DNA of 64,000 bases from Escherichia coli (GCF_030013205.1 NZ_CP122648.1); one strand, 5' to 3'; counted from the first letter of the stretch, positions 37,735-42,482 are shown. Numbers and translations are program-made. The notes: generated by a model from the letters alone, not told the origin.

Positions 37735-39050
37735 TTACCTGTTTTCCCATAATTTCAGCATCGCTTTGTGCTCTTCCTTAAGCACAATCCGCGAGCGTCT
37801 GGCTCGAATATAACTAATCGCTTCATCAACGGTTTTACAATGTCCGTAACATAACAGCCATGCCCCCACTACCAGCGCACTGCGCGATAATCCCAACGCG
37901 CAATGGACCAGAACGCTGCCTTGCTCTTCGCGTAATGTTTCCAACATCGCCACGGCCTGTCGGAGCTCCCCCTCTTCCGGAACCACCAGATCCAACATCG
38001 GTACACAAAAATAGAGTCGATCTTTTGTCGCTCGTCCGCGAGGGAATTCAAAGGTGACGTCCAGAACCGCATTCTGTGCCGGAATATGTCGTGGAAACGC
38101 CCCTAAATAAACACCAGCAGTAATTTTGCTCACCGGCTCCAGGCGAAGGCAAACCAACGCATAGACAGCCACATCCCGATGCGCCATGGCAATGTCAGCC
38201 AGTAAACGGCGGGCGGGAGTTTCCCTTGACTATCTTTACCTGTTGTTATCGCGCCAAGCCCACCGTACCCACGGCCAATAATGAGTAGCGATAATACTGG
38301 CCAACATAACCAGACTGACCACCATAACTGAAGCATTATCATTAGCTCCATCAACACAATGCACGAGCACGCGCCTGCGACATATGGCAGTGCTATTTTG
38401 ATTCGACGTTGATCAGGTTTCTGATAATTCCAACGACGGTCTACGGGCACCATCCAGTCAATTAACATACCTACCGCCAGCCCTGTGATGACATCAATAA
38501 AATGATGCTGCCAGGTCGTCAGCGTCGAAATGGCGATGAGTAAAAACCATCCGCCGCAGACTTTACGCCACCTCACAGCCAGATGCTGACGAAAGTGACG
38601 CCAAAGTAGCCAGCAGAGAATAATATGCAGCGAAGGAGACTGGTTATAAGGCAGATCAAACAATTCAAGTTGCGAAAATAACCATCCTGTCACCCCACTC
38701 ACTTCAGGACGGATAAAACTAAACTTCAGCGGGTAGAGCAAAAAACCGCAGCAGGCCATTACCGTTGCCAGAATAAGCCGGTGGACCAGTCGGCGCTGCT
38801 CAAATGTCGAGCTACAAACGAACAGCGAAAATCCATATAAAAGATCCAGACTCCAGTAAGGAACAATAGTCCAGGGAAGAAAAGGGATCGCCGTTTCCCA
38901 ACCGAATACCTGACTGGGGATATCATGGTTGTTAAGATCCTGAGTCGCGGTGAACTGATTAAGAAATCCATAGGTGAAGAAGAAAAACGGGGCCAGCAAC
39001 AATAACCAGCCAGCTCCTTGTAGCAATACGTTCCGGTGTTCAGTTATCAC
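37735..39050 (-). pseudogene. ynbD: Membrane-anchored dual-specificity phosphatase homolog, split by a frameshift near 38190-38230
   Basis: N-terminal membrane part in frame A (stops at 38130) and C-terminal phosphatase domain ([10 protein letters not shown] motif) in frame B (opens after a stop at 38230); overlap window contains the G/C run ggcgggcggg; putative GTG start at 39050 overlaps the ynbC stop. Confidence 0.55.
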
Positions 39051-40797
39051 GACGCACCGCCATCGAAACCGTAAAAATGCCCCACTCATCAATCCGTTGT
39101 GTGCATTTATCAAATCCGGCATCATGCACGAGCGAATCCATCTCCCCTTGAGAACGCACGCGCATTACCCACGGTTTACCATCTTTATGACTGGTTAACA
39201 CCCCGGCAATCAGCTCCAGTTGTGGGTGCCACGGCTGCCCGGTGTAGATGAGAATGCCACCCGGCTCGATGGCATTGGCAAGACCTGCGAGTGAGTTTTT
39301 TACCTGCTCATTTTCGGGATAAAGCTCATACAGGCCAGAGACAATCGCCAGCGTAGGCCGCGGAGTTAACGTGCTGAGTTCTGCCGGGTTAAACGCATCG
39401 CCATGTTCAAAACGCGCCCGACCAGACATTCCCCGTTGGGCAATCATCTCTTGCCCTTGTGCAACATTTACCTCACTGTAATCACGTAACAAAATATCGC
39501 TTACGGCAGGCTCGTTTACCAGCGCATCCAGTACATAGCGCCCATGCCCTGCGGCAATGTCAACCACGCGGACGGCTAAACCTTTGGCGTGGAGATGGGC
39601 AACGGCTTGTTTAATCAGCATTTGTAAATGGGTTTTGCGCTGGCGAATACCGCGCCAGCCAACACTGTTCAGGTAGATTTTGTCGATAAAGCGCCCGAAT
39701 GCGTTACTGCCTTGCGGTTGATTTTGATAGACATAATCCAGCGAACTGCCTGAATCAAAGCCGGTACTCATTCCGAGATGCAGGCCCGCAGAGTGCGCCC
39801 CGAACAGTTTCATCGCCTTTCGCATAAAGCGATACGCCAAATCAACCGGCGATAACGGCACGGGTCCACCAGAAAGGAGCCGCCATCGATCCGCTGATGG
39901 TCCTGTGCGGTCTTCATGCTGATAATCAAATTTTTGCGACTTGTTAGCATATAAACGGCTGATAAAGCTTTGCATTTTTTCAAATGCCTGCGCCCTGTTC
40001 TCTTCACCCAACGTGTCGTGATAAAAGCCTGGCAGCAGATGCAGCTCTTTCAGAGGACTACGTAAACGCTGATAAAAATCAATCTGCGGTTGGCGATGCA
40101 CCACATAGTCATCGCCTGATATCAGAAGTTGCGTGGGGAGCGTAATCGCCGCCGCATCGCTAACAATACGTTCAGACGTTTTATAGAGATCGAGCAAGAT
40201 ATTGACGGCAATCGCCCGTGTGATCAGCGGATCATTATTGAAACTCGCCACCCGTTGCCGATCGTGGGTCAGATAACGCCCTTTCACATAGGAATTAATA
40301 AAAAACAGACCACGCAGACGATGCCATAACGCCAGCCCAGGACGTGCCAGCGGCACATACAATTTAACCTTAAAGGCCGGAGATACCAGCACTAGTCCGC
40401 GAATAGCAGGCGCATAATCATGAACCCATGTGGCAACCATCACTGCGCCGACGCTTTGCGCGATCACAACCACCTCTTCCAGTCCGACCTGGCTGTCGCT
40501 GGCAGCAAAACGGACAAATTCATCGACATCCTGCACTGAACGCGCAAGAGACGGACTATAACCACGCGGCCCCGAAGTTTGTCCATGCCCTCGGGCATCC
40601 CAGGCATAAAAAGCAGTATCTGGCATCGCCAGTTCATCAACGAGATGTTGTAGACGCCCGGAATGTTCATGACCGCGATGAAATAAGACTATGACCTTTT
40701 TCGCCCCGGGCTGTAAAGCGGGCCAGTGCCGATAAAACAACGCTGTATTATCACTGGTGGTAAAAAAATATTCCCCAGGGATGCGTGGATTTTCCAT
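39040..40797 (-). CDS. ynbC: Bifunctional alpha/beta-hydrolase / SAM-methyltransferase-like protein
   Basis: 585 aa; N-terminal hydrolase fold (GHEHSGR, nucleophile elbow-like AQSVGA), C-terminal methyltransferase-like domain. Confidence 0.85.
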
Positions 40798-40812
40798 TTT
40801 CTCTATTTTCCT

Positions 40813-41709
40813 TCAGTAACAGCAGTAGCGAATAAAATAAAAAAATACTGGGGCGGTGAAAATTAATGAGTCAATCCTGTCAAGGAGTCCGCCATGTCCT
40901 GGTAATAGTTTTCCGCTATCTTTAACACCAACATCTCGTTTGATGGCTGACATCACTACATCGCCGCAAAAACCACAAATACCAATTAACAAACCCGCTA
41001 ATAATGCCTGTAATGTATTTAGCGGTGTCAGCAACGGTCCAATAATCAGTGACGCAATCATGGTGGTGATGACGCCCCCCACCAGACCTTCCAGCGTTTT
41101 TCCCGGGCTGACTTTGGGGACCACTTTTCTTCTGCCGCAGGATTTTCCCCATAAATACTGTGCAATATCGTTTGACTCGGTTAACGCCAAAAGAAATAAC
41201 ACCAGTAACGCCCCACCCTGGATATTTATGGTTGGCAACATTACTAACCAGGCGGCATGACTCAAGGCGAAAACGATCATTATCCAGCCCCAAAAAATGG
41301 CGCTCACAGTATGCAGAAAACCGGAGGGGTCCCCCACAAAAACTTGCCCGGTGGCTAATATCAGAAACCCAGCCAAAGGTATAAATAACAGATACAGCTC
41401 AAAGCAATTAAAACCGATAAACAAATAGTTAAGAGGAATAACCCAATATAACCACCGCGGAAGATGTACAGATATAAGCGTACAATATTCTTTCAATGCC
41501 AGAAAACTTATCAGCGCAAAAAACGTCAACGTCATCCAGCGTGGACCTGAAATCACCAGTGAAAAACAAATGACGATGCCCCACCAGGTACGAATACGTA
41601 ATGTAACTTCATCCCCTTTTCTCTCCGGTAACCGCCATACCCGAAAACGGTTTATCAGCGTTGCTAAAATTAACAACGCGAAAAGTGTTGCCAGAGATTT
41701 TTCCAGCAT
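40813..41709 (-). CDS. ynbB: CDP-diglyceride synthetase (CdsA)-like membrane protein
   Basis: ORF 40813..41745; start at internal Met giving 298 aa; polytopic membrane protein. Confidence 0.8.
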   Translation of the reverse strand: MLEKSLATLFALLILATLINRFRVWRLPERKGDEVTLRIRTWWGIVICFSLVISGPRWMTLTFFALISFLALKEYCTLISVHLPRWLYWVIPLNYLFIGFNCFELYLLFIPLAGFLILATGQVFVGDPSGFLHTVSAIFWGWIMIVFALSHAAWLVMLPTINIQGGALLVLFLLALTESNDIAQYLWGKSCGRRKVVPKVSPGKTLEGLVGGVITTMIASLIIGPLLTPLNTLQALLAGLLIGICGFCGDVVMSAIKRDVGVKDSGKLLPGHGGLLDRIDSLIFTAPVFFYFIRYCCY

Positions 41710-42314
41710 TATCTTTCTGCACTCATAAAAAGCACACTCCGACAACGATTAATCGCAGTCCAGAGAAGCAGAATTGAAGCAATGCCCCATAAAAGATTAT
41801 TCCATTGCATCCACTGTGGATAAATGGCAATGGCCAGACCCCACAGACCAAATATTAACGCGCGATCGCTTTTGCCAAATGGACCGGCATAACTGCGAAT
41901 ACCGTTAATCGTCTGCGCGAGTAAACCGCAAAACTCAGTCAATATGGTGCAAAATAACATGAGTATTACGAGTGATGCGTTACTTTCCGGTAAAAATAAA
42001 AACGGTAAATAAAGCGCAATATCGGAAATAACATCGCCTGTTTCATTCAAAATCGCCCCAAGACGTGTTTGCTGATTGCACTCACGCGCCATCATGCCAT
42101 CCAGCGCATTGAGTGCCATACGAATAAAAAGCACGATGGGCAATAGCAGAAACATGCCAGGATATGGCACCAACGCCAACAACAAAGCGGTGAGAAGAGA
42201 AAGTGCCAACGCGGCAAGTGTGATCTGATTTGCAGACACTTGCCGCTTATGAAGCCAAAACATCGTCGGCCTTAACAGCGACTGAAAGAGCGGTTTTATC
42301 TGGTAGAGCGTCAT
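41709..42314 (-). CDS. ynbA: CDP-alcohol phosphatidyltransferase-family membrane protein
   Basis: About 201 aa; membrane protein with CDP-alcohol phosphatidyltransferase-like D-G-x-x-A-R motif region (ALDGMMARE). Confidence 0.8.
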   Translation of the reverse strand: MTLYQIKPLFQSLLRPTMFWLHKRQVSANQITLAALALSLLTALLLALVPYPGMFLLLPIVLFIRMALNALDGMMARECNQQTRLGAILNETGDVISDIALYLPFLFLPESNASLVILMLFCTILTEFCGLLAQTINGIRSYAGPFGKSDRALIFGLWGLAIAIYPQWMQWNNLLWGIASILLLWTAINRCRSVLFMSAER

Positions 42315-42482
42315 TATCAATCCTTGATAATTCTGTTTGCGCTATGGTGCATCAATTGCCCTGACAGAGATATCGCAACACGCCGCTTCAATAAAAATTC
42401 AGAATATATCAAGGTATTGGGGCTCACTGTCAGGAATGATTATCCACAATTAATCAAATAGTTAAAAATATTACGCTGTTAT

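Follow-up and report, generated by a model that had tools for sequence, protein, structure and literature searches.

We examined the ynbABCD genes of an Escherichia coli genome (GCF_030013205.1, NZ_CP122648.1), which lie within a stretch of 64,000 nucleotides, here called the window (Table 1). There is strong evidence from sequence comparison that the ynb genes form one functional unit centred on the chemistry of CDP-diacylglycerol (CDP-DAG) glycerolipids, and the E. coli operon appears to be a trimmed copy of a widespread lipid cluster of five to six genes. A sequence-only reading of the window had proposed that the four genes encode a dedicated pathway for a polar lipid or head group with no defined product, and that the last gene is frameshifted. 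All four genes were found where that reading had placed them, on the minus strand, and the frameshift was borne out. The locus is an already annotated y-gene operon and not a discovery, and the role of YnbB and the mapped ynbA promoter were also already known. What is new here is the adjacency of ynbA, ynbC and ynbD together with an acyltransferase gene, the existence of YnbA-YnbC fusions, a variant active-site motif in YnbA, and a membrane domain in YnbD with a predicted fold like that of sphingomyelin synthase (SMS) and inositol phosphorylceramide (IPC) synthase.

Genomes, one per species, were scanned with an alignment of 10 YnbC sequences; 455 relatives were confirmed, and the best 80 loci were examined. 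These loci span Enterobacterales, Pseudomonas, Burkholderiales, Rhodocyclales, Neisseriales, and one Bradyrhizobium. YnbA was encoded directly upstream of YnbC at every one of the 80 loci, and the two-domain YnbD directly downstream at 78, while YnbB lay no more than 8 kb from YnbC at 66. A fifth gene, coding for a PlsC-type acyltransferase of ca. 200 amino acids (TIGR00530, E-values of 1e-13 to 5e-20), was present at 65 of the 80 loci, and a sixth, for a membrane protein of ca. 140 amino acids, was common among them. The gene order was A-C-D-(small)-acyltransferase-B at 50 loci and A-B-acyltransferase-C-D at 11; in E. coli the order is A-B-C-D with a B-C spacer of only 15 nt, the acyltransferase gene having been lost. 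Proteins in which YnbA and YnbC are fused also exist, and on the contig of one of them YnbD, the acyltransferase and a CdsA-like gene follow. Given this co-occurrence of the genes across many taxa, and the fusions, the proposal of a shared pathway is well supported.

Several further observations concern the composition of the cluster. In Pseudomonas and Citrobacter, a gene for a membrane protein of ca. 135-147 amino acids, absent from E. coli, overlaps the end of ynbD (L051:11025-11468 and L003:11023-11430, respectively). These small proteins had no NCBIfam family match, and those of Citrobacter and Pseudomonas share merely a weak ERRxGALK patch. In Citrobacter sp. Cu233 the cluster occurs twice (L004 and L012); the copy at L012 is the more divergent one, with a YnbC of 66% identity and a truncated ynbA, and lacks ynbB. 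In one E. coli record, an 889-amino-acid protein (P0001) joins CTP_transf_1 with the YnbC domains and has the appearance of a fusion of ynbB and ynbC by read-through of the spacer of 15 nt.

More distant homologues of YnbC adjoin genes for CTP_transf_1, Acyltransferase, PAP2_3 or patatin proteins. At one locus (L089/L090, 4031-9779), a YnbC homologue of 33% identity is encoded directly after a set of genes for an acyl carrier protein (ACP)-like protein, a ketosynthase, a MaoC dehydratase, a ketoreductase, and a metal hydrolase, with no YnbA or YnbD near it. Because these two are not nearby, the YnbC family may have a different, acyl-chain-centred use there. Arrangements of this kind bear on an alternative in which the cluster is mainly a system of lipid turnover, remodelling or signal production and not a head-group pathway. 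The YnbC lipase would release a fatty acid or a lyso-lipid, the methyltransferase would methylate the product (giving, for example, a fatty-acid methyl ester), the acyltransferase would re-acylate, and YnbA, YnbB and YnbD would just regenerate the carrier lipid. The fusion of lipase and methyltransferase in YnbC suggests consecutive steps on one molecule; in addition to the homologue that follows the ACP-ketosynthase-dehydratase-ketoreductase set, YnbC is accompanied in other variants by a patatin phospholipase and a short-chain dehydrogenase, and the acyltransferase is a usual member of the cluster. However, close homologues of YnbC (at least 56% identity) are flanked by YnbA and YnbD, and some are fused to YnbA, so that YnbC is linked to an enzyme that forms head groups; moreover, nothing in the methyltransferase fold points to a carboxyl substrate. 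We regard a turnover system as the least likely of the explanations considered here.

The enzyme assignments of the four proteins were examined one by one. YnbA matched Pfam CDP-OH_P_transf (PF01066) with an E-value of 6.3e-10 over residues 27-175. Its best NCBIfam matches were archaetidylinositol-phosphate (AIP) synthase (3e-20) and phosphatidylinositol-phosphate (PIP) synthase (2e-14), with PgsA at merely 2.6e-6, and its best match in the PDB was the mycobacterial PIP synthase 6h53 (1.8e-8). We conclude that, as judged by these profile matches, AIP and PIP synthases are the nearest relatives of YnbA and are much closer to it than PgsA. The scores of YnbA nevertheless lay well under the equivalog cut-offs of the PIP/AIP synthase families NF045883 and NF040950 (72.9 bits versus 180 and 53.8 versus 170, respectively). 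The signature of YnbA, N69xxD72GxxARx8Gx3N90x3D94x3D98, departs from the canonical four-Asp signature, D1xxD2GxxAR...GxxxD3xxxD4, in having Asn at the D1 and D3 positions. This N/N variant was found in 78 of the 80 YnbA orthologues, whereas MkPIPS, CHPT1 and E. coli PgsA have Asp there. The acceptor of YnbA is probably anionic. E. coli is not known to make inositol phosphate de novo. Apart from this, 12 of the 18 amino-acid differences between the YnbA of this strain and that of K-12 fall in residues 22-54, the first transmembrane region, and the synonymous divergence (dS) of ynbA is 0.22, compared with ca. 0.09-0.11 for ynbB, ynbC and ynbD. The clustering of differences and the raised dS hint that codons 22-54 of ynbA are a recombined or hypervariable segment.

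YnbB gave a full-length profile match to CTP_transf_1 (PF01148, E-value 9.9e-69), and its C-terminal half matched the TmCdsA structure 4q2g (2e-23). The CdsA C-terminal signature SxxKRxxxxKDxxxxxPGHGGxxDRxD is present in the form SAIKRDVGVKDSGKLLPGHGGLLDRIDS, and the allele in the window is 94.6% identical to K-12 YnbB. According to the summary of Sato 2019 in PMC7018664, K-12 YnbB makes CDP-DAG in vitro. When overproduced, YnbB raises the level of the glycolipid MPIase and restores it in cells depleted of CdsA; it supports MPIase synthesis and not bulk phospholipid synthesis (PMC6362211, PMC7018664). A ynbB knockout is neutral, with the MPIase level unchanged (PMC6362211). Thus, the view that these genes have no defined pathway or product does not hold for YnbB. 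It does hold for YnbA, YnbC, YnbD and the operon as a whole, for which our literature search found no assigned function.

These data raise the possibility that the whole operon is a dedicated MPIase back-up. In that case YnbB would supply CDP-DAG, YnbA would form GlcNAc-PP-DAG ("compound I"; GlcNAc, N-acetylglucosamine) from CDP-DAG and GlcNAc-1-phosphate, the PAP2 domain of YnbD would recycle diacylglycerol pyrophosphate, and YnbC would trim or modify the glycolipid. Besides the effects of YnbB overproduction, ynbB and cdsA are both cold-induced (PMC6362211, PMC7018664, PMC11413397), ynbA and ynbB are translationally coupled, the enzymes of the later MPIase steps are not known (PMC11413397), and a YnbA without two active-site acidic residues might suit an anionic phosphate nucleophile. 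However, the MPIase glycan is the same trisaccharide as that of enterobacterial common antigen (ECA; PMC11413397), and ECA is an Enterobacterales trait (PMC8609368), whereas the cluster extends to Pseudomonas, Burkholderiales, Rhodocyclales, Neisseriales, and Bradyrhizobium and is thus not restricted to ECA-making Enterobacterales. The cluster contains no glycosyltransferase, and the published model explains compound I by CdsA alone, the ynbB deletion leaving MPIase unchanged (PMC6362211). Although MPIase is essential, ynb DNA is wholly absent from 658 complete E. coli genomes, and the membrane domain of YnbD is predicted to resemble phosphodiester-cleaving transferases and not pyrophosphatases. 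No MPIase role of YnbA, YnbC or YnbD was reported in the literature that we searched, and the distribution data argue against their being the missing MPIase enzymes. We therefore consider an MPIase-specific operon distinctly improbable.

YnbC is a fusion protein. Its N-terminal domain (residues ca. 20-270) matched Hydrolase_4 (E-value 5.4e-68) and is of the monoacylglycerol-lipase (MGL)/lysophospholipase type; the triad Ser115/Asp230/His260 is conserved, and MGL structures were matched with 2e-14 over ca. 260 residues. The C-terminal domain (residues ca. 275-585) matched Methyltransf_20 (E-value 1e-150) and shows the features of a class I methyltransferase dependent on S-adenosylmethionine (SAM), with a Rossmann-type fold, motif I in the form DIAAGxG, and an acidic motif II. 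The closest structure to the methyltransferase domain, 3ocj, is itself uncharacterised, and a literature search on PF12147/Methyltransf_20 and on the domain combination found nothing. A ynbC transposon mutant has been described as accumulating polyphosphate, in a single genetic background (PMC2435150).

YnbD had been read as a membrane phosphatase, and here the assignment had to be revised; the other three enzyme assignments stood. In the intact K-12 protein, the membrane domain gave a weak match to PAP2/PAP2_3 (E-value ca. 1e-4), while the C-terminal part, which the earlier reading had missed, is a second, soluble domain matching the dual-specificity phosphatase (DSP) profile DSPc with an E-value of 2.6e-27. 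The DSP domain combines this profile with the HCX5R(S/T) loop and the upstream Asp of Cys-based dual-specificity phosphatases: the P-loop HCALGLSRS is located at residue 375, its CX5R motif is conserved in all 70 orthologues compared, and a conserved L-D at 345-346, 30 residues upstream of the P-loop, is the candidate for the general acid.

The predicted structure of the membrane domain has eight helices and a pLDDT of 91.8. Its structural scores were highest with human SMSr (14.8 and 13.9 for two entries) and yeast Aur1 (13.0), and lower with LpxE (11.8), PgpB (11.3), and LPP1 (10.0). The model aligns with SMSr and Aur1 over ca. 190 residues, and with hydrolytic PAP2 phosphatases over 145-160. 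The domain keeps the C2 element PSLH and the C3 element H..D (QHHFID), i.e., the His/His/Asp core, but has no C1 motif KX6RP, and S-T replaces S-R, so that the three motifs of the hydrolytic PAP2 enzymes are not all present. In those enzymes, the basic residues of KX6RP and S-R hold the phosphomonoester. With a PAP2 fold closest to SMS and Aur1, the catalytic core, and no C1, the domain has the structural features of the SMS/IPC-synthase type. We conclude that the membrane domain of YnbD is predicted to fold most like sphingomyelin and IPC synthases and not like lipid phosphatases, and is better viewed as a candidate head-group transferase or phospholipase-C-like enzyme. A link to SMS and Aur1 at the sequence level was rejected: a profile search with the N-terminal domain found the LPP1 C3 motif alone (E-value 0.02), and the relationship therefore rests on the predicted structure. 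The loop 193-205 carries a charge of +6 and was assigned to the cytoplasm from the charge distribution, so that PSLH and HHFID would face the periplasm and the DSP domain would be cytoplasmic. YnbD has been noted as the fourth PAP2 protein of E. coli, and when overexpressed it does not replace phosphatidylglycerophosphate (PGP) or undecaprenyl pyrophosphate (C55-PP) phosphatases (PMC7413402). Such non-complementation is expected, since YnbD is not a plain phosphomonoesterase in the model proposed below.

Taken together, these results lead us to propose, with about even chances of being right, that ynbABCD is a self-contained side branch from CDP-DAG for making and subsequently processing a minor polar lipid; our confidence in any single step inferred for it is much lower. 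YnbB, whose activity is established in the literature, would supply CDP-DAG as a private pool. From it, YnbA, whose translation is coupled to that of YnbB, would transfer phosphatidyl to an anionic, probably phosphorylated acceptor X-P, and the cytoplasmic DSP domain of YnbD would act in the manner of PGP and PIP phosphatases and strip off the extra phosphate. YnbC may then deacylate and/or methylate the lipid or a released fragment. Finally, as its fold and motifs suggest, the periplasm-facing SMS-like domain of YnbD could cleave the phosphodiester lipid, releasing diacylglycerol, with phospho-X passed to a second acceptor or to water. In other taxa, the PlsC-type acyltransferase would supply or remodel acyl chains. 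In the strain studied here, the ynbD deletion would remove the dephosphorylation step and leave the membrane domain intact, and in E. coli generally the cluster would be poorly expressed (activated by BglJ-RcsB and cold-induced), dispensable, and eroding. A bolder version, which we hold to be rather unlikely, is that the cluster makes an undescribed lipid: YnbA would build phosphatidyl-X(-P), which would be dephosphorylated and methylated, and YnbD would pass phospho-X to an envelope molecule, freeing diacylglycerol. If this were true, the YnbD domain would be a bacterial counterpart of SMS and IPC synthases in an organism free of sphingolipids, and the cluster would represent a new way of decorating the envelope, with a wide distribution in Proteobacteria.

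Several points weigh against a CDP-DAG side branch of this kind. The identity of acceptor X, the substrate of YnbC and the direction of the reaction at the YnbD membrane domain are guesses, and no product of the cluster has been observed. With Asn at two metal ligands, YnbA could have another chemistry, or could be weakly active or inactive. In YnbD, K101-x4-R106-P107 could be a degenerate C1 motif, and the P-loop CALGLSR lacks the basic residues expected of lipid-specific DSPs such as PTPMT1 and PTEN. The cluster is not intact in 21% of complete E. coli genomes, and knockouts of ynbB, ynbC and ynbD are without a clear lipid phenotype (PMC6362211, PMC7413402, PMC2435150).

According to another explanation, E. 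coli inherited a larger lipid cluster, which then lost its acyltransferase; what is left would be a decaying remnant without a coherent pathway, drifting towards pseudogenes, with at most a marginal back-up through YnbB, and the frameshift would be a further step of decay. Among 5426 complete E. coli genomes, the cluster is covered to at least 80% in 4280 (79%), and 658 (12%) have no ynbABCD match. In strain 1424KP (L085, NZ_CM173836.1), a clean azoR-pdxI junction was seen with ydbD-ynbABCD gone (the block corresponds to 37735-44789 of the window), which suggests that the absence of ydbD-ynbABCD goes back to one recurrent or ancestral deletion that spans ydbD too. Other losses were an internal ynbA'-ynbB-'ynbC deletion and a ynbB interrupted by IS1. 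In the comparison of this strain with K-12, the ratios of nonsynonymous to synonymous divergence (dN/dS) of the ynb genes are 0.19-0.27, ca. five times those of azoR and hrpA (0.03-0.05), and the protein identities are 91-96%; these ratios indicate that the ynb genes are under purifying but relaxed selection. The clean absence of the acyltransferase that is present at 65 of the 80 loci elsewhere and the lack of any reported knockout phenotype also fit decay. On the other hand, the dN/dS values are still clearly purifying, all catalytic motifs are intact in this strain save for the single frameshift, the cluster still has its specific activator site and its response to cold, and the full cluster is retained in 79% of the genomes. 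A remnant of this kind appears unlikely to us. The adjacent gene ydbD (42483-44789, minus strand; annotated as a DUF2773 bactofilin) has a dN/dS of 0.32 versus K-12 and a GC content of 0.43, and evolves even faster than the ynb genes.

The frameshift in ynbD was characterised by alignment to K-12. One nucleotide is deleted at codon ca. 292 of 430, where a run of four T residues (T4) is shortened to three (T3), and RefSeq marks the identical allele as "frameshifted". The change spares the whole membrane domain (291 residues) and removes the cytoplasmic DSP domain. When the 5426 complete genomes were searched with a 46-nt probe that matches the T3 allele alone, it was found in 21 genomes from several laboratories, while T4 was present in at least 3645. 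The carriers are mostly porcine enterotoxigenic E. coli (ETEC)/O139:H1, with one bovine and two human isolates, and a 6-kb comparison of the window with swine ETEC/O139:H1 strains, K_EC180 among them, shows 100% identity. A sequencing error was rejected, the identical T3 allele being present in 21 independent complete assemblies. We conclude that the T3 allele is a recent lineage-specific lesion and a lineage marker; it provides a clean natural "DSP-less" allele, confined to the swine ETEC/O139 lineage. An out-of-frame ATG at 38187 opens a 150-amino-acid open reading frame over the DSP domain. Gene fission with this ATG as a compensatory start was also considered and rejected: the variant CCATGG that creates the ATG occurs in 194 genomes, intact T4 alleles among them, and no Shine-Dalgarno sequence was seen upstream of it.

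The layout of the locus is summarised in Table 1. The upper bound that the sequence-only reading gave for the cluster, 42320, corresponds to a TTG that precedes by two codons the ATG annotated in RefSeq (42314). The operon-like packing of overlapping or abutting genes was confirmed. The ynbA stop and the ynbB start overlap by 1 nt (TAATG), the ynbB-ynbC spacer of 15 nt contains an AAGGAAA Shine-Dalgarno sequence, and the ynbC-ynbD spacer is 13 nt long, with TTG as the start codon of ynbD; ynbA has AAGGA as a Shine-Dalgarno sequence 8 nt before its ATG. The cluster is flanked by convergent azoR on one side and by co-directional ydbD on the other. In K-12, the ynbA promoter, transcription start and BglJ-RcsB site have been mapped by mutagenesis, and BglJ-RcsB activates the promoter via a site 65-68 bp upstream of the start (PMC3950696). 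The region upstream of ynbA in the window is 96% identical to that of K-12, BglJ-RcsB box included. A candidate box, TATTCTGA at 42399-42406, matches the core motif wwTTCykA; its position is that of our own motif match in the window and was not read from the figure in PMC3950696. Inside the cluster, consensus scans for promoters and terminators returned sites no more frequently than in shuffled sequence. Gene spacing, these scans, and the promoter mapped in K-12 are consistent with ynbABCD being one transcription unit. The stable hairpin between convergent ynbD and azoR is without a U-tract and was not called by a simple terminator scan; it is a likely end of both transcripts. An Rfam search of the region gave no family matches. 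An anti-phage defence system was rejected as an explanation of the locus, as PADLOC gave no matches.

Table 1. Features of the ynbABCD locus; positions are counted from the first nucleotide of the window
Feature	Position	Strand	Description
ynbA	41709-42314	minus	201 aa; CDP-alcohol phosphatidyltransferase family; membrane protein
ynbB	40813-41709	minus	298 aa; CdsA paralogue
ynbC	39040-40797	minus	585 aa; alpha/beta hydrolase fused to class I SAM methyltransferase
ynbD	37735-39026	minus	Frameshifted; membrane PAP2-superfamily and dual-specificity phosphatase domains
ynbD, 5' part, in frame	38130-39026	minus	291 native codons and 7 aberrant ones; TGA at 38130-38132
ynbD, frameshift site	38151-38153	minus	T3 where K-12 and most E. 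coli have T4; K-12 alignment
ynbD, 3' part, out of frame	37735-38129	minus	DSP domain with CX5R loop; otherwise uninterrupted
ydbD-ynbA intergenic region	42315-42482	minus	Holds the ynbA promoter
Hairpin between ynbD and azoR	37683-37733		Core 37696-37725, TGTGGACTG...CAGTCCACA; RNA fold -24.9 kcal/mol

Phospholipid synthesis in E. coli is deemed essentially solved, yet with this operon E. coli has a second CDP-DAG synthase and a second phosphatidyltransferase, alongside a lipase-methyltransferase and a two-headed membrane enzyme; no product is known for the four together. Lacking the acyltransferase, E. coli serves poorly as a model for the five-to-six-gene unit.

Compared with known systems, the membrane domain of YnbD shares the PAP2-superfamily fold with SMSr and Aur1 at an identity of merely 11-13%. 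It differs from them by the additional cytoplasmic DSP domain, and its transferase activity is a prediction from the structural model; E. coli has no ceramide, so the donor and acceptor of YnbD must differ. PgpB, LpxE, LpxT, YbjG, and LPP1 belong to the same superfamily, but the match of YnbD to enzymes of this hydrolytic group is of lower score and covers fewer residues, KX6RP is absent from YnbD, and neither C55-PP nor PGP phosphatase mutants are complemented by it (PMC7413402). With Rv0183 of M. tuberculosis and human MGLL, YnbC shares the match to the Hydrolase_4 fold and the Ser-Asp-His triad; unlike in these lipases, the hydrolase is fused to a Methyltransf_20 domain, a family without a characterised member. 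YnbB itself belongs to the published CdsA/YnbB route to MPIase via GlcNAc-PP-DAG (PMC6362211, PMC7018664), whereas the ynb cluster, with its wide taxonomic range and no glycosyltransferase, fits an MPIase-specific operon poorly. Further parallels are the two-step head-group pathways that start from CDP-DAG, namely, PgsA with PgpA/B/C or PTPMT1, and bacterial or archaeal PIP or AIP synthase with a PIP phosphatase. The mitochondrial PGP phosphatase PTPMT1 has a DSP fold, and the ynb cluster likewise pairs a phosphatidyltransferase and a CDP-DAG synthase with a phosphatase. It differs in that YnbA scores far below the cut-offs of the PIP and AIP synthase families and has Asn in place of two Asp metal ligands, and in that YnbD does not make up for the loss of PGP phosphatase (PMC7413402). 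Beyond the components of these two-step pathways, the ynb cluster also encodes a lipase-methyltransferase and an SMS-like domain and, in most cases, an acyltransferase.

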